Virus record (IMG/VR): IMGVR_UViG_3300045988_098849
Direction: 5' to 3' (one strand)
Length of the DNA: 54,525 nucleotides
Origin: a virus
The notes below the pieces were generated by a model, which was given only the letters and a program-made list of their open reading frames with translations, had not been told where the DNA came from and did no database searches. Shown piece by piece: positions 1-8,781 of the stretch. The position numbers and the translations under genes were made by a program. The stretch's first letter is position 1. Each line of letters opens with the position of its first letter.

Positions 1-99
1 CAAAAACAGAAAACATTTTCAATATGCATTTTCGCCCTATATTCGCCCCTATAAGCCGCCTTTTTATTTCACTTGACCGGATTAACCGCCAAAAAAAAG
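1..99. repeat. Terminal direct repeat copy 1, identical to 54427..54525 (circular-contig overlap)
   Basis: Base-by-base comparison shows 1-99 equals 54427-54525 with no mismatch. The unique sequence is 54426 bp. Confidence 0.95.
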
Positions 100-127
100 A
101 AAACGCCCTCTCACAAGCCGCAGAGGG
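88..127 (-). terminator. Intrinsic terminator after CDS 111..404
   Basis: Minus-strand hairpin CCCTCT/AGAGGG (106-111 with 122-127), followed on the minus strand by a T-run (A-run 88-103 on the plus strand). Confidence 0.5.
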
Positions 128-404
128 GCAGAGAAAGCATTTCCTTATTCAGCTTCTCAAGGTCGAATTTTTCAAGCCTTGACAGGTCGAACGCCTGTAA
201 TTTTTCTATACATTCTTTTCGGGTTTTTCCGTAAACACCTATTAACATACCACTTTTTTCTTCTGTCACACTCCAAGAACAGCTACCTCCGCCGCTTATG
301 TAAAAGATGAAGCTACCACGTTCCACCCTGTATCCCTCAGCCTGAAAGCGTTCCCTTTTTCGCCCTGCAAGCTGACGGACTGCGAAAAACTTTTCTTTTT
401 TCAT
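111..404 (-). CDS. Hypothetical protein, 97 aa (cargo operon)
   Basis: ORF track. SD AAGGGGG lies 9 nt upstream of ATG 404. No recognisable motif. Confidence 0.6.
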   Translation of the reverse strand: MKKEKFFAVRQLAGRKRERFQAEGYRVERGSFIFYISGGGSCSWSVTEEKSGMLIGVYGKTRKECIEKLQAFDLSRLEKFDLEKLNKEMLSLPLCGL

Positions 405-467
405 GTGGTTGCACCCCCTTTTACACAGCCGCTCCGCAGAGCGTCAAGCCCTGCGGATTCCTTTTTG

Positions 468-833
468 TTAAAAGTACGCTTTTTCATAACACAGATTTTT
501 TAGGTAATGAATTTTCCCTTCAAGTCCGCCATCTAAGTCTATTGCATAAAGCATTACTTTCAGCGGAACAGCATTTAACAGTTTTTCATACTGTTTTATC
601 TCCGGCATAGAGTTTAACCACCGTTCCCATTTTTCATGCTGTACATTAGCCGTATGCTCAATTTTTAACAGTGCATCAGATGGCACATATCCCATGGGAT
701 TGACATACCATGTGATTTTTCCACAATTTGCAATATGAGCAATAGTTTTATAATCTCCATTTTCCTCTACGGCTTTATTGCAAACAGTGATTCCATTTCC
801 CAAATGTCCCATAAATAATTCAAATTTTTTCAT
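468..833 (-). CDS. Hypothetical protein, 121 aa
   Basis: ORF 468..866 trimmed to ATG 833, which has an AAAGGAAAG SD 6 nt upstream. No motif recognised. Confidence 0.55.
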   Translation of the reverse strand: MKKFELFMGHLGNGITVCNKAVEENGDYKTIAHIANCGKITWYVNPMGYVPSDALLKIEHTANVQHEKWERWLNSMPEIKQYEKLLNAVPLKVMLYAIDLDGGLEGKIHYLKNLCYEKAYF

Positions 834-935
834 GATTATCTTTCCTTTCTTTTTCTCATGTTCCATTTTCCTTGGCTTGTCTCATCAGTTGGAAGGTTGC
901 CGCCCTACCCAATACCGCCCGAAGGCGGTTTCAAC

Positions 936-1211
936 TTAATCGGCTAAAATTGACCTTGCGGTGTTAAAAACGTAAAGTCTGTTGTGCGGATGGTGCTTAA
1001 AATCTCCATTGCTTTTTATCGTTTTCCCGATATTTTCATATTTAAGACTGACAACGATTAAATATTTTTCAAGCATTTCATCGGAACATTTTAAGCAGTT
1101 AATCGCATTTTGGATGCTGCTTTTATTACTATTCCAGTAAATACCTTCGATTCTGCATTTCTTTTCTTCCTGTAATTCGTTAAATTCTTTCATTAAATCT
1201 TTCTTTGTCAT
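936..1211 (-). CDS. Hypothetical protein, 91 aa
   Basis: ORF track. AGGAGG lies 8 nt upstream of ATG 1211. Confidence 0.6.
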   Translation of the reverse strand: MTKKDLMKEFNELQEEKKCRIEGIYWNSNKSSIQNAINCLKCSDEMLEKYLIVVSLKYENIGKTIKSNGDFKHHPHNRLYVFNTARSILAD

Positions 1212-1359
1212 TTTGATTTCCTCCTTCGTTGTCCTCTGTTGTTTTCTATGGCATTATATTATCATATTTAATTAATAATATCAATTCATAAACGCAAAAT
1301 TAAATAAAATATTATTGCAAAAATAATGTAAATAAGTTGAATTAAGTTTTATATAATAA

Positions 1360-1388
1360 TTGACTTATTTATTGCATTATTGTATCAT
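1360..1388 (+). promoter_or_regulatory. Sigma-70-type promoter TTGACT-17-TATCAT
   Basis: TTGACT at 1360-1365, a 17-nt spacer, and TATCAT at 1383-1388, about 45 nt upstream of ATG 1434 in an AT-rich divergent intergenic region. Confidence 0.55.
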
Positions 1389-1433
1389 TTAATTATATCA
1401 ATAATAATGCGTATTAAATGGAGGTATGTAATC

Positions 1434-2030
1434 ATGGCAAAGAGTGAAAAGGAAATGATAGAAAAATACAAGGCAAGGATGAAAAGACAGAATGAAAAGA
1501 TAAAGGAAAACTACGACAGAGTATCCGCAACGCTTCCAAATGGCACCATAGACAGAATAAAGGCTTTAGGTCTGACGATTAACGGAGTAATTAATGAGAG
1601 CGTGCTTGCATATCTGGACTGCATGGAAGAAGCGCAGGCAGAGGAAGAACAGAACAACGCAGAAACCGCAAAAATACAAGATTCTACACCAGATACAGAA
1701 GTAGCGGAGATTGCCCCTGTAGAGCCGGAAACGTCAGAACCGACCAATCCCATACCCGATGCGGAAACGCCCGTCAGAACGCCCGAAAACGGCTTAAAAC
1801 CGCTAACAATCGAGGATATCCAAGCCATGTTTGATAACAGGAAAACAGACGAAATCAGACAGGAGGAAGAAAGACAGGAGCGGAAAGAACAGGAGGAGCA
1901 GGAGCGGCGCAAGCTGCTAGCCAATCCCGAATACGCCGCCACATACGCCCAGCTTATGGCAATGGAGACCGCAGAAAAGGAAAAGAAACGCGCCGAAATG
2001 CTCACCAGAGCGAGATTAGAAACATTGTAA
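1434..2030 (+). CDS. Ribbon-helix-helix (Arc/CopG-like) N-terminal domain protein with an acidic, coiled-coil tail
   Basis: ATG 1434 follows GGAGG. The N-terminal pattern RVSATLPNGTIDRIKALGLTINGVINESVLAYL resembles RHH DNA-binding proteins. The rest is E/Q/K-rich low complexity. Confidence 0.5.
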   Translation: MAKSEKEMIEKYKARMKRQNEKIKENYDRVSATLPNGTIDRIKALGLTINGVINESVLAYLDCMEEAQAEEEQNNAETAKIQDSTPDTEVAEIAPVEPETSEPTNPIPDAETPVRTPENGLKPLTIEDIQAMFDNRKTDEIRQEEERQERKEQEEQERRKLLANPEYAATYAQLMAMETAEKEKKRAEMLTRARLETL

Positions 2031-2035
2031 ACCTG

Positions 2036-2061
2036 ACCGCCAGAAATGGCGGTTATTTTTC
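2036..2061 (+). terminator. Intrinsic terminator
   Basis: Stem ACCGCC/GGCGGT (2037-2042 with 2049-2054), followed by ATTTTT. Confidence 0.6.
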
Positions 2062-2088
2062 CATATTTTACCATTTATTTATCTTTGT

Positions 2089-2131
2089 AAAGATATCTTT
2101 GAAAAGATTTAATATTTTAGGAAGATATCTT
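2089..2131. promoter_or_regulatory. Two AAGATATCTT palindromes (putative operators)
   Basis: AAAGATATCTTT at 2089-2100 and AAGATATCTT at 2122-2131, plus a degenerate third copy at 2135-2150 that overlaps the -35 of the next promoter. Confidence 0.5.
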
Positions 2132-2148
2132 TTTAAAGATATTTTATC

Positions 2149-2177
2149 TTGATTTTTTGCGGTGAAATTCGTATAAT
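2149..2177 (+). promoter_or_regulatory. Sigma-70-type promoter TTGATT-17-TATAAT
   Basis: TTGATT at 2149-2154, a 17-nt spacer, and TATAAT at 2172-2177, 34 nt upstream of ATG 2211. Confidence 0.6.
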
Positions 2178-2210
2178 TGAGAGTAGGAAAAACGAAGGAG
2201 GTATATTAAA

Positions 2211-2462
2211 ATGATTGTATTTAAATTTGATGTTGCAGCTGCATTAGAATCCGCTGGGGTTACTTCTTACACAGCTGTAAAAAATGGTTTGTTATCTGTC
2301 GACACGTGGCGGAAAATCAAGAAAAACGATGCAAATATAAGCATGAAATCTCTTAACAAAATTTGCATCATCCTGAACATGAAACCAGAACATTTAATCA
2401 CATACAAGCTGGATGAAAAAGAAGATTCTGACATAATAGAAAGGTTCAAAAAACTAGGTTAA
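2211..2462 (+). CDS. XRE/Cro-type helix-turn-helix protein, 83 aa
   Basis: AGGAGG SD. The pattern LESAGVTSYTAVKNGLLSVDTWRKIKKN...SMKSLNKICIILNMKPEHLI fits an HTH_XRE-like protein. Confidence 0.6.
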   Translation: MIVFKFDVAAALESAGVTSYTAVKNGLLSVDTWRKIKKNDANISMKSLNKICIILNMKPEHLITYKLDEKEDSDIIERFKKLG

Positions 2463-2564
2463 GAAGATAGCTTTTGAAAGATACACGATACCCCATACAA
2501 GCATCTGTATCTGTAAGGGGTTAAAAAGAATGTAATCTAGTATTTTATTTCATACAGTAAAACC

Positions 2565-2597
2565 AATGAAATCTAATATATTCAAGAATGAAATCTA
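2565..2597. promoter_or_regulatory. Direct repeats AATGAAATCTA x2, spaced 22 bp
   Basis: Identical 11-mers at 2565-2575 and 2587-2597, about 90-120 bp upstream of the promoter at 2683. Confidence 0.4.
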
Positions 2598-2682
2598 AAA
2601 AAGAATTTAAGTACGTAGTAATATATTAAATCTTAAAACAAATACAGAAACCAATTAAATCATAAAAAAACAAAATTCCCTA

Positions 2683-2711
2683 TTGACAGAATGATTAAAT
2701 TTTTGTATCAT
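2683..2711 (+). promoter_or_regulatory. Sigma-70-type promoter TTGACA-17-TATCAT (start of packaging/late transcription unit)
   Basis: TTGACA at 2683-2688, a 17-nt spacer, and TATCAT at 2706-2711. Confidence 0.6.
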
Positions 2712-2820
2712 ATCCCACAAGAAAGAAAATTGAATTTAAAAGGCATCCAGCTAACGCCGTTGCTCTGGATGACCTGAACGGCAAGGACGGCACCCCAATT
2801 TTTTACAGAGATACCAACAC

Positions 2821-2860
2821 GCCACAGAATGAGATTAAAATCTTTTTCTGTGGCTTTTTT
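2821..2860 (+). terminator. Leader terminator between the promoter and the first late gene
   Basis: 9-bp stem GCCACAGAA/TTCTGTGGC (2821-2829 with 2846-2854), inner AGATT/AATCT pairing, then TTTTTT at 2855-2860. It lies 39 nt before ATG 2899. Confidence 0.7.
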
Positions 2861-2898
2861 AATTTACCGCAGCAGGAACGAGGAAGGAGGCGCGGAGC

Positions 2899-3537
2899 AT
2901 GGAAAATAAAATTTATGATTCAGAAATCGAGGCGTGTCTAGATTCATTCTGTGCCGAAAAGGGAATTGCGGACATGTCCAAGGAATCACAAAGCGTCTGG
3001 AATGCTGCCCTAATGTATATTAAAAAAAATGTATTCCCAGACACAAAACAGTTAAAATCTAGTATTTTATTCAAAAATGGTATAGGAGCAATGAGCAATT
3101 GTAATGCCTATGACTATGAGCTTGTAGACCATATCTGCGATATATATATTTATTTATCCCTGATGAATGATAAAGAAGTATCTATCAATGGTTTTAGTTT
3201 TTTAACAGGGATAAGTAGAGATGCAATAAAAGAATGGGGAAATGGTAATAAAAAACTAAGTGATAAAGCTTTCAAAATTTACAAAAAGCTAGTAGATGTA
3301 AGGCTTGAGAGTTTATCGGGCAAACTAGCCACAGGAAAGCAGAACCCTGTAGGCGTTATCGCAATCCTAAATCACTTTTACGGTTGGAACAGCCCATATG
3401 CGCCAGATGCTAACAGACATCGCACCGCCCTATCAGCTGCCGAACTTCCAAGACTGAACGAGGTTAAAACTGTTGAAATTGCACAAGATGCAGACAGATT
3501 GACGGACAGCGGAAACGATAAATCAATATCTAGTTGA
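2899..3537 (+). CDS. terS: Putative terminase small subunit, 212 aa
   Basis: First gene after the late promoter and leader. The central HTH-like FLTGISRDAIKEW and the motif NPVGVIAILNHFYGWN resemble the TerS motif (IFxLKNxFGW). Confidence 0.5.
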   Translation: MENKIYDSEIEACLDSFCAEKGIADMSKESQSVWNAALMYIKKNVFPDTKQLKSSILFKNGIGAMSNCNAYDYELVDHICDIYIYLSLMNDKEVSINGFSFLTGISRDAIKEWGNGNKKLSDKAFKIYKKLVDVRLESLSGKLATGKQNPVGVIAILNHFYGWNSPYAPDANRHRTALSAAELPRLNEVKTVEIAQDADRLTDSGNDKSISS

Positions 3538-3560
3538 AAATAAATGCTTGACACAATATA

Positions 3561-3590
3561 TTGATTTAAAACTATTCGCATAACTATCAT
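3561..3590 (+). promoter_or_regulatory. Possible promoter TTGATT-18-TATCAT overlapped by a 7-bp inverted repeat
   Basis: TTGATT at 3561-3566 and TATCAT at 3585-3590. The inverted repeat ATTCGCA/TGCGAAT brackets the -10. Confidence 0.35.
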
Positions 3591-3774
3591 TTTGCGAATA
3601 AATACAGAAAATTATAGCCAATGCGGATGAACAGCGGTTGTTGCGGCTTGGATGATTCCGCCGTTGAGAATGGACGGGGGTGGGGGTCTGGATAGGAGTA
3701 GAAAAAGCCTCTACTTAGTCCCACAAATATCCTCAAAAACAAAAAGCCCCCATCTGCACAAAGGAGTGACAAAA

Positions 3775-4047
3775 ATGTTTTGGAACCCATTTAGAAGAAT
3801 TAAGGATTTAGAATTCGATGTCGATGTGCGAGACCGTACAATCGAAAATCTGAAAAAGGAGATTGAGGAATTAAAATCTCCTACAAGACCAAAGTATCAT
3901 CCAAATGTAACCTGTACTGACTGCGAATATTTCATTGTTGAGGACTACGGAAACGTAGTTTGTAAAGGCTATTATTGCAGACTCAATAATAACTGTGAAG
4001 ATTACACTTTGAAAGAGCAAGTAGGCGGTGTTACATATGTACGATGA
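3775..4047 (+). CDS. Hypothetical Cys-rich protein, 90 aa
   Basis: AAGGAG lies 8 nt upstream of ATG 3775. An N-terminal coiled coil is followed by CTDCEY...VCKGYYC...NNC. Confidence 0.55.
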   Translation: MFWNPFRRIKDLEFDVDVRDRTIENLKKEIEELKSPTRPKYHPNVTCTDCEYFIVEDYGNVVCKGYYCRLNNNCEDYTLKEQVGGVTYVR

Positions 4048-4186
4048 AAAAGAATGTTGCGGTAAGTGCAAATATGCCATTATAGACCGAGAGTTGCTTT
4101 TTACCTGTGATAATGAGGATAGTGACTACTACACCGACTACACGGAATATGATTATGGCTGTGATTATTTTGAACCGAAGGAGTGA
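4037..4186 (+). CDS. Small Cys-rich ORF, 49 aa (shorter than the ORF-track cutoff)
   Basis: Hand translation gives MYDEKECCGKCKYAIIDRELLFTCDNEDSDYYTDYTEYDYGCDYFEPKE. It overlaps the upstream stop and ends just before the next SD. Confidence 0.4.
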   Translation: MYDEKECCGKCKYAIIDRELLFTCDNEDSDYYTDYTEYDYGCDYFEPKE

Positions 4187-4191
4187 ACAGA

Positions 4192-4422
4192 ATGAGAATT
4201 TTAAGCCAAGATAGAACAGCTTCCATTGATGAAAGTGGAGTATCACTGTTAGTAGTTAAAAATTATGTCAAGGCCATCCTTAACGATATAACACTCAAGT
4301 CTATTGTTCTCGGAGAATATAGGAACGAAGATCGAGCAATGGAAGTGCTTGCAGAGATTCACGCTCTGTATGAAGAACTCCCCTTCTCTGGCAGTACAGT
4401 TTTTTATATGCCAAAGGAGTGA
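4192..4422 (+). CDS. Small phage protein, paralog family member A (76 aa)
   Basis: AAGGAG SD. Starts MRILSQDR and ends FYMPKE. Similar to 4425..4661 and 43142..43423. Confidence 0.6.
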   Translation: MRILSQDRTASIDESGVSLLVVKNYVKAILNDITLKSIVLGEYRNEDRAMEVLAEIHALYEELPFSGSTVFYMPKE

Positions 4423-4424
4423 GC

Positions 4425-4661
4425 ATGATGATAACGATTATTAGTCAAGATAGAAAGCATTCTGTTGGCAAGGATAAATTTCATAGAATAGATATTTTTA
4501 GACACGGGAAAGAAATCATTGCAGAAAAAGATAGGGAGCGAATACTACTTGGTCACTATACGAAAACAGAGCGGTCTTATGAAATATTCCAAAAATTATG
4601 CCTTGTCATAAGGAAAGACATTCCGAATTGTGGTGACTTTTTCTATATGCCGAGATATTAA
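4425..4661 (+). CDS. Small phage protein, paralog family member B (78 aa)
   Basis: ATG 4425 follows AAAGGAG. Starts MMITIISQDR and ends FYMPRY. Tandem duplicate of 4192..4422. Confidence 0.6.
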   Translation: MMITIISQDRKHSVGKDKFHRIDIFRHGKEIIAEKDRERILLGHYTKTERSYEIFQKLCLVIRKDIPNCGDFFYMPRY

Positions 4662-4785
4662 ACTCTGATATGTACCCTGTTTGTTGCGCTTGCCTTTGAG
4701 CGGTTTAGTTCATGACTGTACGGCGATTATGGCAAGAAACAAGGCGGCTATAGACGCTGATTTTCGGACGCAGGGTCTTATATAT

Positions 4786-4856
4786 GCACCAGTAGTTTAA
4801 TGGCAGAACAGAAGTTTTCCAAACTGCGGAAACGGGTTCGATTCCCGTCTGGTGCT
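4786..4856 (+). tRNA. tRNA, anticodon UCC (Gly) most likely
   Basis: Hand fold: acceptor GCACCAG/CTGGTGC, D stem GTTT/GAAC, anticodon stem GAAGT/ACTGC (one A-G mismatch), loop TTTCCAA, T arm ACGGG-TTCGATT-CCCGT, and discriminator U as in tRNA-Gly. Confidence 0.75.
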
Positions 4857-5039
4857 TTTCATCGGGTTTTTGGACATTTTTCCCGATGGATAACACAACC
4901 TTTCACCCACTAGGGGAATCCTGTTAAGAGCCATCGCACGGCTCGGTGGGTTTTTGGCTTGTATGCCGATGGGGACTGGCAACAAGACCAAACACCAACT
5001 TCATATTTGGGGCGTTTTAACGGCATCACGCCCCACTCT

Positions 5040-5113
5040 GGATTCTTAGCTCAGTTGGTTAGAGCATCCGGCTCATAACCGGACGGTCCTCGGTTCAAGT
5101 CCGAGAGAATCCA
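5040..5113 (+). tRNA. tRNA, anticodon CAU (elongator Met or Ile2 type)
   Basis: Hand fold: GGATTCT/AGAATCC acceptor, GCTC-AGTTGGTTA-GAGC D arm, TCCGG-CTCATAA-CCGGA anticodon arm, CTCGG-TTCAAGT-CCGAG T arm. It lacks initiator features. Confidence 0.85.
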
Positions 5114-5467
5114 TTTGCGGTCTTTCGGTATCATGGTTTATCGCAACCATTGATCGAGCTGACTGGTCGTATGATTCGGGGTCGCTCCCCTCCGTGGAAA
5201 TCGGACGGAACACAAACCGATAGGAATTGTGACACATCGGAGAGCAACGATGCGGGATGCTCAGGATGGCATCAACAGGGTATGGACGCTACCAACATAC
5301 TTGGAGTGATGAAAACTGCGTTCAAGGCAGTCCGTTTTGCTGGTTTCGTGACTGACAATAAACCAAAAACTGAAAAATCATGTTGGGGATTGGATAGAAA
5401 CTTGATTTAGGTGAGGTCGATTCGGATTTCACTATTAGAGATGGTGTCTTTTAAATCCCCATCCTCT

Positions 5468-5559
5468 GCCAACATACCGAAACGGTTATAACGGCGTGGT
5501 CTTGAAAACCATTGTGTCGGTTAGAATCCGACATGGGGGTTCAAATCCCTCTGTTGGCG
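5468..5559 (+). tRNA. tRNA-Ser, anticodon UGA (class II, long variable arm)
   Basis: Acceptor GCCAACA/TGTTGGC, anticodon arm GTGGT-CTTGAAA-ACCAT, variable arm GTCGG-TTAGAAT-CCGAC, T arm GGGGG-TTCAAAT-CCCTC, discriminator G. Confidence 0.8.
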
Positions 5560-5755
5560 TTTGGGTTCACGATGAAAACCTTACTCGCAACCTTATGGGT
5601 TAAATCGTTGTAAAAATGCGTGGTCGAAAGCAGTCTTTTAGGTCTGCGATAAAGCGGACTTGCCCCGGGTTATTAGCCTGCGAATAGACGTGAAGTGAGC
5701 GATGTACAAGAAACATGAAAACGTTGAATTGTTCTTCAATGCTCGAGAAAGGATT

Positions 5756-5817
5756 TAGCATGTGGTGTAAGTGGCTATCACACTGTTGAGATGCAGGTTC
5801 GAGTCCTGCCATGCTAT
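5756..5817 (+). ncRNA. tRNA-like element lacking an anticodon arm
   Basis: Acceptor TAGCATG/CATGCTA, D arm GTGT-AAGTGGCTATC-ACAC and canonical T arm GCAGG-TTCGAGT-CCTGC. Only 8 nt sit where a 17-nt anticodon arm plus variable loop should be. Confidence 0.5.
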
Positions 5818-5849
5818 TTTTAGAATAAAAACGAAAGGCGGTGCGTGTA

Positions 5850-6062
5850 ATGGCGAAAGGTGTAAAAACCATAAGCAAGAAAAAATTCTTTGAAGCGTTC
5901 GATGCGTTCTGTAGCGGACGGATGACACTTTCCGTAGCAGCAAGACATATAGGAATCAGCGTGCCTACTGCCTCTAAATACTTCAACATGTACATAAAAA
6001 GCGAGCCCTTCCCAGATACGCTATTCGGGACTGATGAGCAACAGGAAATGTTAGAAAAATGA
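5850..6062 (+). CDS. Small HTH protein, 70 aa
   Basis: ATG 5850. The motif MTLSVAARHIGISVPTASKYF looks like a helix-turn-helix. Confidence 0.5.
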   Translation: MAKGVKTISKKKFFEAFDAFCSGRMTLSVAARHIGISVPTASKYFNMYIKSEPFPDTLFGTDEQQEMLEK

Positions 6063-6072
6063 TAATTTGCCT

Positions 6073-6258
6073 ATGAGAGAGAAATCCATAACAGGTAAAT
6101 ACATAGGGAACGCAATAGGATACTGTCACTGTAAGGCTCATACTGGGGCGTTGAACAAGGAACTTGCTTACAAGCACAAATGTATTGCTAAACGGTGCAA
6201 ATGGCTTGAGAAGTACAATGATGATGCGTGGAGAAGAAAAGAAAGGTATGTGCGGTAA
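6073..6258 (+). CDS. Hypothetical Cys/His-rich protein, 61 aa
   Basis: ATG 6073 within ORF 6067..6258. Contains CHCKAH...CIAKRC. Confidence 0.45.
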   Translation: MREKSITGKYIGNAIGYCHCKAHTGALNKELAYKHKCIAKRCKWLEKYNDDAWRRKERYVR

Positions 6259-7018: not shown

Positions 7019-7038
7019 GAGCGGAGGTGCTTTTTTTA

Positions 7039-8781
7039 ATGGCAAGTTTTGAGTTGATAAGTGCCGTACAGGACTACGAGAAATACATAGAAACAAATGG
7101 AATCAATGAGCAGGTTATTGATGCGTATTGCGAAGCTGCCAAAACCGCTGCTACGAATGAAAAGGATATTGAGTACGGTCTTAAAATATCAAAAAGGTGT
7201 AAGGAAATCATTGAAACCTTTTGCGTTGATACTTCTGGAGGCACAATTTGGGATTTAGAAAAATACGCTTTCAAAGAAAAAGTAAGCTATGAAATTATAG
7301 AAAAATTTTATTCCGTCTTACTGATAGAAGCGCAGAATAAGGTTGTCGATAGTTTCTTTCGTTATATCGAACACAAAAGAGAACCGAAGGAGCGGTTTTA
7401 TATGCCGAGAAGAAAACAGTTCTTAAAAATTGGTCTGGTAGATGCACTGCAAGGGATGATTGATGATAAGTACGATATTCTGTGTATCAGCCTAATTCCT
7501 GGGGCCGGGAAAACGACAATCGAGAAATTCTTCAATGCCGCGATTATCGGTTGGTATCCGAAGGACTTCAATCTGTTTTATTCTCATAGCGGTGATATTA
7601 CCAGAATGTATTACGATGGCATGTACGATATTGTCACCAACGCGGATGAATACGCATGGAACGAAATATTCCCTAACCTTAGCGTGACGAACACGAACGC
7701 CAAGATGGAGCAGTTTAATGTCGGGAAATATAAGCCGTTCCCCTCTGTTCAGTGTACATCCGTAGGTAGTAAGAACGCCGGTAAGGTTCGTGCATCGAAA
7801 TTTCTGCTTGTTGACGATATGATAGGCGGTATCGAAGAAGCAATGAACCCTATGATACTTGATAAGCTGTGGAACAAATACGCTGTTGACGCAAGACAGA
7901 GAAAAATACAGGACACTACGGGGCATAACTGCAAGGAGATACATATTGCTACCAGATGGAGTGTTCATGACGTTATCGGGCGCATACAGAATATGTATGA
8001 GGGCAACTCAAGGGTAAAGGTAATTTCGGTTCCTGACATCGACCCTGTAACAGGAGAAAGCAATTTTGATTATGAGTTTTCCGGGTTCGATGTCGCGTTT
8101 TTTGAAGACCAGCAACTATTGATGGACGATATTTCCTACAGGTGCCTATATAAACAGGAGCCCATTGAGCGAGAGGGTCTGGTATTCCCTGATGACAAGA
8201 TACGCCGATACCTCAATCTTCCACACGGAGAGCCGGATATTATCACTGCACAGTGCGACACGAAAGGAAAAGGAACGGACTATTTTGTCCTGCCAATCCT
8301 GCAAAAATACGGTGATGACTACTACTGCGTGGATTGCGTTTGCGATAATACCGCAGACTATGAAATGCAGTACGAAAACGCCGCAAATGCTATTGTTAAT
8401 AATGGAGTACAGGAGTGCGAATTTGAGCGAAACGCAGGCGGAGACAGGGTTGCTATGGAAGTGAATAAACGTGTAGAGGCTAAGGGTTGGATTTGCAATA
8501 TTACAGATACGCCGACAGAGACAAACAAAGAAGCAAGGATTTTTCAGTGCTCAAACTGGATCCTGCAACACATTGTCTTCAAGGATGAATCTCAGTATTC
8601 TCCGAAAGAGCCATACGGCGTGATGATGTCACTTTTGAAACGGTATTCTGTAAGTAGCAAGAAACAGCTTGATGACGTTCCAGACGTATTTTCTAACTTT
8701 GCGGTAAGAATCACAAAGGGAAATAGGATTGCGAAGGTAGAGGCAACCATAAATCCGTTTAGAGGGGGCGTATATTATTGA
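7039..8781 (+). CDS. terL: Terminase large subunit, 580 aa
   Basis: GGAGG lies 10 nt upstream of ATG 7039. Walker A-like LIPGAGKTT and Walker B-like LLVDDMIGG. Its size and its position upstream of the portal gene fit TerL. Confidence 0.85.
   Translation: MASFELISAVQDYEKYIETNGINEQVIDAYCEAAKTAATNEKDIEYGLKISKRCKEIIETFCVDTSGGTIWDLEKYAFKEKVSYEIIEKFYSVLLIEAQNKVVDSFFRYIEHKREPKERFYMPRRKQFLKIGLVDALQGMIDDKYDILCISLIPGAGKTTIEKFFNAAIIGWYPKDFNLFYSHSGDITRMYYDGMYDIVTNADEYAWNEIFPNLSVTNTNAKMEQFNVGKYKPFPSVQCTSVGSKNAGKVRASKFLLVDDMIGGIEEAMNPMILDKLWNKYAVDARQRKIQDTTGHNCKEIHIATRWSVHDVIGRIQNMYEGNSRVKVISVPDIDPVTGESNFDYEFSGFDVAFFEDQQLLMDDISYRCLYKQEPIEREGLVFPDDKIRRYLNLPHGEPDIITAQCDTKGKGTDYFVLPILQKYGDDYYCVDCVCDNTADYEMQYENAANAIVNNGVQECEFERNAGGDRVAMEVNKRVEAKGWICNITDTPTETNKEARIFQCSNWILQHIVFKDESQYSPKEPYGVMMSLLKRYSVSSKKQLDDVPDVFSNFAVRITKGNRIAKVEATINPFRGGVYY

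Follow-up and report, generated by a model that had tools for sequence, protein, structure and literature searches.

The non-coding RNAs GOLLD and ROOL have been reported near transfer RNA (tRNA) genes in prophages (PMC5737381). Here we describe a much smaller RNA motif, M1, from positions 4662-5849 of IMG/VR record IMGVR_UViG_3300045988_098849, a viral DNA of 54,525 nucleotides (nt) that is referred to at its full length as the window. The interval is a tRNA gene island of a tailed phage of ~54 kb, the host of which is probably a gut member of the Lachnospiraceae or related Clostridia. M1 (core 4905-4951, plus strand) was delimited by a covariance model and by covariation, and resembles ROOL and GOLLD in being a non-coding RNA placed beside tRNA genes in Firmicutes phages and prophages. 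In contrast to these RNAs, which are ~580-800 nt long with many junctions and pseudoknots, M1 has three helices in ~50 nt and shares neither sequence nor structure with them. Like M1, skipping-rope (RF02924) and int-alpA (RF02996) are small, bioinformatically defined and located 3' of tRNAs in related islands, but they have a different fold and match at no M1 position.

Stable RNAs other than tRNAs are also known from the tRNA cluster of phage T4, in which 'species 1 and 2' (rnaC and rnaD) are matured from the same precursors as the tRNAs. They belong to another phage lineage, measure ~120-140 nt and differ from M1 in sequence, and homology is not to be expected. In E. coli the sponge RNA 3'ETS-leuZ, which acts by base pairing, comes from a polycistronic tRNA precursor, where it forms part of the trailer or spacer. 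A pairing RNA released from a spacer would correspond to the mechanism we propose for M1 and its CU-rich leader, although 3'ETS-leuZ is chromosomal, is unstructured save for its terminator and pairs with small RNAs rather than with Shine-Dalgarno sequences. The tRNA-like domain of transfer-messenger RNA (tmRNA) and mascRNA lack a decoding arm and have an acceptor-like helix stacked on a stem of 5 base pairs (bp) with a 7-nt loop. A tRNA-like element elsewhere in the island (5756-5817) fits this minihelix layout exactly and M1 shares its topology, but M1 is without the T-loop and D-loop consensus, and no tRNA, tmRNA or mascRNA score is obtained at its position. M1 matches no Rfam model, its copies having no Rfam match at E≤1, and is a new addition to the RNAs found beside phage tRNAs. 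An anonymous entry for it may already exist among the 8,495 candidate structured RNAs from IMG/VR in PMC10690425; the M1 string does not occur in the first 200 of the 408 supplementary files of PMC8040213.

M1 is closed by a 7-bp helix, P1 (4905-4911 with 4945-4951), and a mini-hairpin, P2 (4912-4915 with 4919-4922), abuts it. A junction linker, GUUAA (4923-4927; of the GUUAAG type in the family), leads to P3 (4928-4932 with 4940-4944), which carries the 7-nt loop AUCGCAC, and a run of five U residues (U5, 4951-4955) follows, all on the plus strand. Family-wide, P1 has 7 bp, P2 3-4 bp and P3 5-6 bp, with the 3' strand of P3 continuous with that of P1. Covariance model R1, which represents M1 over 75 positions, has one match in the window (4890-4964, 75 bits, E 1e-23), the next best reaching 9.9 bits. 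The original prediction, that the interval holds structured RNA besides its tRNAs, is borne out by the deep conservation and covariation of the M1 core together with several short hairpins. One of the stems that it drew, CCATCG/CGATGG (4931-4936 with 4967-4972), conflicts with both the covariation-supported P3 and a hairpin at 4953-4992, and is probably not formed.

Covariation was assessed in two sets of M1 copies. In set A2, which was retrieved by a sequence pattern that dictates the inner P1 pairs, 93.8% of cells are paired, compared with 30-45% in slid registers, and none of 500 shuffles did as well. All four P3 pairs tested in this set covary, in positions that the pattern leaves free, while the outer P1 pair occurs as CG, GU, GC and UA and the third P2 pair as CG, GU and GC. 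Set A3, comprising copies from loci selected by terminase and fitted to the model, has 95.7% of cells paired against 28-46% in slid controls (0/500 shuffles equal), with two-sided changes in 10 of the 15 pairs, including six of the seven in P1. P1 is wholly rewritten in divergent copies that keep the fold, for example CUCUCU/GGAGAG in locus L030 and CCAGUU/GACUGG in L029, and P1 and P3 are recovered de novo by RNAalifold. G-U pairs are abundant (P1 has an invariant one, U-G, at its base), so the fold is possible only on the plus strand, which is that of the tRNAs. An Rfam scan and an alignment of related phages had been suggested as checks of the original prediction; the former returned nothing besides tRNA, and M1 pairs covary across related phages. 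The fold of M1 is strand-specific, has been maintained in evolution and goes together with tRNA arrays, and we hold with considerable confidence that the island architecture and M1, as a real and selected RNA fold, are correctly described.

The relatives used here came from a terminase search of IMG/VR that yielded 80 loci (given L numbers). Loci L001-L018 have terminases 92-98% identical to that of the window and the same three tRNAs, whereas L020-L080 (82-86% identical) have different tRNA sets and likewise long spacers. Only the segment at ~4889-4960 has nhmmer counterparts in distant relatives, each shortly 3' of a tRNA, and conservation outside the close relatives is limited to ~60 nt. 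Among 62 distant relatives chosen by terminase alone (82-86% identical), R1 finds M1 in 48. A pattern of its invariant bases matches at least 120 IMG/VR stretches, and the loci collected hold 171 copies, whose 31 distinct cores are mainly of three types. The pattern has 76 matches in the GTDB genome collection, of which 15 exceed 54 bits with R1; five score 18-25 bits and 56 have no match at E≤0.01, and these 61 look like chance. The high-scoring contigs are labelled as Clostridia in 14 of 15 cases, mostly of Lachnospiraceae type (the labels being Acetatifactor, Roseburia, Faecalimonas, Agathobacter, Eubacterium, Ruminococcus, Lachnospiraceae, Acutalibacteraceae and Clostridia), and the remaining one as 'Bacteroides sp. 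CAG:927'.

BLAST searches of GenBank phages with the island and with the first 25 kb of the window gave matches through tRNA sequence only, and by terminase the sole GenBank relative is Dulem virus 39 (82% identity), in which R1 detects M1 25 nt after a tRNA-Ser(UGA). This locus (L276; PP511791.1, record 54500-59751) has no annotated tRNA, and small 'hypothetical protein' coding sequences are drawn over its tRNAs and M1. Phage tRNA islands are commonly annotated as tRNAs plus junk or, mistakenly, as tiny hypothetical proteins. Unlike the window, Dulem virus 39 has a gene for an RtcB RNA ligase (58459-59664), situated between its tRNA island and its terminase.

M1 keeps a regular position relative to tRNAs, 131 of the 171 copies lying 39-140 nt 3' of a tRNA on the same strand; in the window the 5' strand of P1 begins 48 nt past the 3' end of tRNA-Gly. 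The preceding tRNA may be Ile-UAU, Gln, Gly, Leu-UAA or a UUA suppressor, and is Ser in Dulem virus 39. As it accompanies several tRNA identities, M1 is an independent module of tRNA arrays and not the trailer of one tRNA. UUA-anticodon suppressor-type tRNAs, which read UAA, occur in the islands of several relatives (L030 1595-1666, L053 6219-6290 and others), a hint that some phages of the group recode stop codons.

A CU-rich tract (CCUCCUUUC) stands 0-8 nt ahead of P1, and we take it to be the sequence of the 16S ribosomal RNA anti-Shine-Dalgarno tail. A 5-mer or longer piece of CCTCCTTTC is present within 25 nt 5' of P1 in 69 of 74 unique contexts, compared with a 10% background, and the flanks of the tract vary between contexts, which suggests that the tract itself is selected. 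The window has a weak version of it, the leader CCUUUC (4899-4904, plus strand), where other types have CCUCCUUUC; this leader is counted under the 5-mer definition, but as a match of only 6 nt that is not significant alone. Mimicry of 16S helix 45 and the anti-Shine-Dalgarno tail by the hairpin and tail upstream of M1 was considered and rejected, since there is only a 7-11-nt match to the tail in some types and none that is significant in the window.

The type B copies of M1 form the 5' domain of a longer conserved RNA. Downstream of M1 (L031 1868-2070 and ~50 other loci) is further conserved and covarying structure: first a hairpin, GCCGCG...CGCGGC, then in some cases a multi-stem insert, and at the end a long hairpin with the invariant loop CUAUCCCACGG. 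With M1 the type B RNA measures ~100-200 nt in all and has no Rfam match; the hairpin with the CUAUCCCACGG loop is absent from the window.

The island itself is read rightward, and its neighbours have the same orientation: the open reading frames (ORFs) on either side (4183-4422, 4419-4661, and 5841/5852-6062 and onward) and, at 7027-8781, the gene of the large terminase (Pfam PF22530 and PF17289). This identifies the locus as a tailed-phage tRNA island. The three tRNAs and the tRNA-like element noticed by eye are indeed present, ARAGORN calling the three and no tmRNA: tRNA-Gly(UCC) at 4786-4856 (59 bits with the Rfam tRNA model), a tRNA with anticodon CAU (Met or Ile2) at 5039-5114 (72.3 bits) and tRNA-Ser(UGA) at 5467-5560 (51 bits), all on the plus strand. 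The tRNA-like element (5756-5817) is what remains of a tRNA-Ile(UAU)-like gene that has lost its anticodon arm. The spacers measure 124, 182, 352, 195 and 32 nt, 885 nt altogether, in line with an earlier estimate of roughly 900 nt. They had been described as visibly rich in G+C, and an enrichment exists but is modest (0.461 vs 0.41 for the window, where 300-nt windows have a standard deviation of 0.05), spacer 1 reaching 0.50.

BLAST and alignment against the close relatives L001-L018 and further loci show these ~885 nt to be a mosaic, made of cassettes of 50-160 nt that related phages exchange by recombination. The segment between the upstream ORF stop and tRNA-Gly (sp0, 4662-4785) is optional, most of 4680-4780 being absent in L003, L011 and L015. 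In spacer 2, a 162-nt cassette B (5166-5327) is present only in L003, L011, L116, L158 and L183, in just two unique sequences, and other relatives have an unrelated ~44-nt piece at its site. It is followed by a 50-nt linker (5328-5377) conserved in all close relatives, with a fold z of -0.67, and then by an optional cassette D (5378-5466) that is absent in six of the 18 close relatives (L002, L004, L006, L008, L016 and L018). Spacer 3 begins with block i (5561-5692), which is 92-97% identical in relatives and is non-coding, given its single-base insertions and deletions among them, and ends with the lineage-specific cassette j (5693-5755), which precedes the tRNA-like element and occurs only in L116 and L183. 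A different ~265-nt cassette takes the place of 5693-5815, the tRNA-like element included, in all 18 close relatives, and the window's version of that region recurs only in L116 and L183. All of these segments were read on the plus strand. Among relatives the length of spacer 2 varies between 146 and 352 nt and that of spacer 1 between 82 and 182 nt; together with the independent variation of the cassettes, these ranges mean that the spacers do not constitute a single large structured RNA. In nhmmer searches of 200 loci, no spacer block other than M1 has homologues beyond the close relatives, save a weak partial match of 5561-5692 in L164 and L181.

The tRNA-Gly(UCC) gene occurs as two alleles, one in the window and the other in L002, L003, L006, L011 and L016-L018. 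They differ in a block confined to the anticodon stem and variable region, the remainder of the gene being nearly identical, a pattern that suggests recombination breakpoints within the gene.

Fold stability was expressed as a z-score of folding energy against dinucleotide shuffles. The seven hairpins listed by the original prediction are all in the sequence, within 1 nt of the positions given for them, and a hairpin density beyond chance holds for spacer 1 (4857-5038; z -4.23, 0/200 shuffles equally stable) but not for spacer 2 as a whole (5115-5466; z -1.36) or for spacer 3 (5561-5755; z +0.58). By segment, values are low for 4857-4898 (-2.91), 4955-5038 (-3.34) and two pieces of spacer 2 that are significant by themselves, 5115-5165 (-2.46) and 5378-5466 (-2.71); sp0 has -1.56, and values are near 0 for 5166-5250 (+0.33) and 5240-5335 (-0.64), which cover cassette B, and for 5561-5692 (+0.29) and 5693-5755 (-0.10). 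Three of the listed hairpins, at 5191-5331, fall in segments with z of +0.3 and -0.6 and are no better than chance.

Five plus-strand hairpins stand out besides M1. Hairpin hp1 (4858-4890; CAUCGGG/CCCGAUG core), directly 3' of tRNA-Gly, shows a compensatory change from G-C to U-A at 4864/4884 in L003 and L018. In d1 (4953-4992; GGCUUGU.UGCCG...CGGCA.ACAAG.CC) the pair 4962/4982 is U-A, U-G or C-G across relatives. The stem of d2 (5008-5035; GGGGCGU/ACGCCCC), which ends 4 nt ahead of tRNA(CAU), is invariant in close relatives and hence carries no covariation signal. Hairpin e (5118-5165; core AUGGUU/AACCAU at 5130-5154), 3' of tRNA(CAU), changes from U-A to G-C at 5137/5146 in L006, L016 and L017, and cassette D forms a long imperfect hairpin (5382-5463) with only wobble-preserving variation. 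Hairpins hp1, d1 and e thus have one compensatory double change each, their other changes being wobble-preserving. Block i has one local hairpin (~5639-5663), again with wobble-preserving changes only, and no structure signal beyond it, and sp0 has a single compensatory pair, 4693/4732, among 10 unique sequences. With 5-17 unique sequences per block, from close relatives that are 90-99% identical, the case for conserved pairing in hp1, d1 and e is suggestive but shallow.

We consider it most likely that the tRNAs and M1, as a small RNA domain, are transcribed and processed together, and the whole explanation, a tRNA island with mosaic spacers and M1 as a co-processed RNA domain, is the one we favor on balance. 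M1 would be transcribed inside a polycistronic tRNA precursor and would form a discrete folded domain, either released by the tRNA-processing nucleases or used as a processing or stability signal. Stacking of P1 on P3 would give a helix of 12-13 bp capped by a 7-nt loop, the geometry of the tRNA acceptor/T-arm minihelix; this geometry is recognised by tRNA-processing enzymes, and M1 may for that reason be excised or may direct cleavage. The single-stranded CU-rich tract (CCUCCUUUC) 5' of P1 in most members could pair with Shine-Dalgarno sequences. The hairpins at 4858-4890, 4953-4992, 5008-5035, 5118-5165 and 5382-5463 would most simply be elements of precursor processing or stability that flank the tRNAs; no structure was detected in the rest of the spacer sequence. 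This account of processing and pairing is offered tentatively.

Several observations weigh against it. M1 is dispensable in at least one close relative, as the segment 4859-4951, M1 included, is absent in L002. Taken alone M1 is not unusually stable (z -1.28), and in the minimum-energy fold of spacer 1 as a single sequence the 3' strand of P1 is paired elsewhere. The covariation counts come from related sequences, the inner P1 pairs of A2 being fixed by the pattern, A3 being fitted to the model and P2 being short. The match of the window leader to a 16S 3' tail is not significant (p about 0.1). Support for the hairpins other than M1 is shallow, with changes counted on a structure that alifold had optimised on the same data, and every processing step is inferred from sequence.

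The leading alternative is that M1 is only a transcription signal acting in cis (an intrinsic terminator or attenuator, or an anti-terminator) and not a discrete RNA with its own function; to this we would give perhaps one chance in a handful. A terminator scan flags 4928-4949 followed by a T-run, U5 follows P1 in the window, and M1 regularly lies just downstream of a tRNA. However, the U-run has only three U in types B and C, and the conserved structure of type B extends 100-200 nt past M1, so transcription evidently reads through. Nor does a simple terminator need a conserved three-way junction in which the bases UAG and GUUAAG are invariant.

It is rather less probable that the non-tRNA sequence is functionless, made up of decayed tRNAs, recombination scars and hairpins that arose by chance or are left-over tRNA arms. 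The mosaic nature of the island and the z-scores near 0 over about half of the spacer length agree with this possibility, as does the topology of the M1 stems, which is that of a tRNA without its anticodon arm. It is also favored by the tRNA remnant at 5756-5817. In this 62-nt plus-strand element, which scores 39.1 bits with the Rfam tRNA model (gathering score 29), all 7 bp of the acceptor stem are perfect, the D stem has 4 bp and a loop that contains GG, and the T arm, GCAGG-UUCGAGU-CCUGC, is canonical. The anticodon arm and variable region are replaced by 9 nt, the Rfam alignment having 4 nt where the model has 15 positions for the anticodon arm, and ARAGORN does not call it at default or relaxed thresholds. 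The T arm, GCAGGTTCGAnTCCTGCCAT, is shared with the tRNA-Ile(tat) of L029 and L031, and the acceptor stem and T arm resemble the tRNA-Ile(UAU) genes found in most distant relatives, so that the element looks derived from a gene of this type. An exact D-arm/T-arm pattern scan of IMG/VR for its parent returned only L116 and L183, near-identical copies thus being confined to three contigs including the window, and we lean towards a recent pseudogene rather than a functional tRNA mimic. An independent second case, also a point for the functionless reading, is L118 775-836, a tRNA-Ile(UAU) with TTCAAT in place of the anticodon arm, and a crude scan gave 56-57-nt acceptor-plus-T-arm elements (AGCAAGC...CCGGGGTTCGAATCCCCGGCTTGCT) in L053, L140 and L141; arm-less tRNA derivatives seem to be recurrent in these phage islands.

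For M1 the functionless reading is contradicted, because the fold is kept with compensatory changes across ~18% terminase divergence and beside six tRNA species. No credible decayed tRNA was found in the spacers either, ARAGORN at thresholds of 90, 80 and 70% giving only spurious intron-containing or tmRNA-like calls and the Rfam tRNA model at E≤10 giving none. Nor would functionless sequence account for the z of -4.23 in spacer 1 or for the identity of the spacers, 90-99% as against 80-92% for the adjacent coding sequence 5852-6062 on the same contigs.

A bolder version of the co-processing account can be imagined, in which M1 is a phage small RNA class that evolved from, or mimics, a tRNA lacking its anticodon arm. 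Once cut from the tRNA precursor by the processing enzymes, M1 or the upstream fragment ending in ...CCUCCUUUC, a copy of the 16S anti-Shine-Dalgarno tail, would bind Shine-Dalgarno sequences or ribosome-associated factors and so retune translation during infection. We regard this as a long shot. If it were true, these islands, with tRNAs, suppressor tRNAs, ROOL, skipping-rope, M1 and, in one relative, RtcB, would be translation-manipulation cassettes.

A hidden small protein antisense to the tRNA, for which the CU-rich tract and M1 would mark a minus-strand translation start (GAAAGGAGG plus ATG), is very improbable. A Shine-Dalgarno-like sequence is followed by a start codon at 3-13 nt in 30 of 53 unique contexts, several of the ORFs begin ATGAAAAA, and in the window the minus-strand ORF 4705-4896 begins 3 nt from GAAAGG. 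However, these ORFs span 6-127 amino acids and are unrelated in sequence, the longer ones being antisense tRNA, and 23 of the 53 contexts, the window type included, have none. Only 10 of the 18 close relatives keep ORF 4705-4896 intact, and the G-U pairs of M1 show selection on the plus-strand RNA. More generally, the claim that the interval has no credible coding sequence stands: 17 ORFs of at least 30 amino acids were tested against 18 aligned relatives and none is credibly conserved. The 86-amino-acid ORF 5150-5410 has no Pfam match and is intact in 0/18, and the only one remaining open (15/18), the 39-amino-acid ORF 4681-4800, has a TTG start and no Shine-Dalgarno sequence and extends into tRNA-Gly.

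We find a role at the DNA level, as a packaging (pac/cos), recombination or attachment site, no easier to credit than a minus-strand start. The large terminase follows the region, a weak small-terminase-like ORF (2899-3537) precedes it, and its recombination is cassette-like. On the opposite strand, however, the G-U pairs of M1 would become A-C mismatches, an indication of single-stranded RNA rather than recognition of duplex DNA, and M1 tracks tRNAs rather than distance to the terminase. Evidence of repeats or termini did not come up, no search aimed at it having been made.

The window was scanned with Rfam 15 at gathering scores, 4400-6100 at E≤10 and 1-4700 at E≤1. At gathering scores only tRNA models match anywhere in the window, and the E≤10 scan of 4400-6100 gave nothing meaningful beyond tRNA, a 12.8-bit permuted-tmRNA fragment falling inside tRNA-Gly and weak mascRNA matches coinciding with true tRNAs. 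ROOL (RF03087) is matched neither at its gathering score (99.1 bits) in the window nor in the E≤10 scan; it is a contiguous RNA of ~580 nt, and the longest tRNA-free stretch here is 352 nt, built of cassettes and with a fold z of -1.36. GOLLD (RF01998; ~800 nt and sometimes enclosing a tRNA) has no match in the same scan, and the island is a mosaic. Group I introns, self-cleaving ribozymes and tmRNA likewise have no match there, nor do skipping-rope and int-alpA there or in the window as a whole. The library detects ROOL, skipping-rope, int-alpA and Hammerhead_II in relatives, and for this reason we consider ROOL, GOLLD, introns, ribozymes and tmRNA excluded for the window. Among 30 relatives scanned, ROOL was found in one and skipping-rope and int-alpA in two each. 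The ROOL of L118 (1462-2022, 390.8 bits), which serves as a positive control, is directly 3' of a tRNA-Tyr in an island that also carries M1, and it confirms that ornate RNAs occur beside tRNAs in such phages, as had been argued. The skipping-rope and int-alpA copies are likewise directly 3' of tRNAs (L051 3160-3260, L132 1016-1100, L030 1670-1737 and L114 936-1002).

The suggestion that the spacers are one or two large ornate RNAs, ROOL- or GOLLD-like or of a new class, enclosing the tRNAs is thus close to refuted: the interval is long, ORF-free and somewhat richer in G+C, ROOL occupies the equivalent island of L118, and GOLLD and ROOL are reported near tRNAs in prophages (PMC5737381), but no ROOL, GOLLD or group I intron is matched even at E≤10, the longest spacer falls well short of ROOL, spacers 2 and 3 are no more stable than shuffles, each of the cassettes at 5166-5327, 5378-5466 and 5693-5815 is kept, lost or replaced in close relatives independently of the others, and only ~60 nt are conserved beyond the close relatives.

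Other features were noted in the vicinity. Type II hammerhead ribozymes occur in eight of the 30 scanned relatives (49-69 bits; L003 714-781 and L020 3162-3227 and L024 3369-3436, all on the minus strand, and L083, L094, L099, L114 and L138), on the strand opposite to the tRNAs and 3.5-5 kb off the island; none was found in the window at 1-4700 with E≤1. The adjacent, overlapping ORFs 4183-4422 and 4419-4661, of ~80 amino acids, are apparent paralogues ending in FYMPK/FYMPR; they are swapped or missing in some relatives and have no Pfam match above cut-off. At 1350-2100 the window has a G+C of up to 0.48-0.52, an AT skew of up to +0.4 to +0.56 and long ORFs on both strands (1380-2030 plus, 1511-2074 minus), and this region adjoins a very A+T-rich patch at 1050-1500 (G+C 0.23-0.25).

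The locus is therefore of an ordinary type, and to read it as a large ornate RNA is wrong for this window, which removes a false lead. The tRNA island is a hot spot of structured RNAs (ROOL, skipping-rope, int-alpA and M1) in a large group of phages of human-gut Clostridia. M1 covaries cleanly, exists in hundreds of copies and has a fixed place with respect to tRNAs, and at ~50 nt it offers a tractable handle on why phages put non-coding RNAs beside tRNAs, a question that it shares with ROOL and GOLLD.

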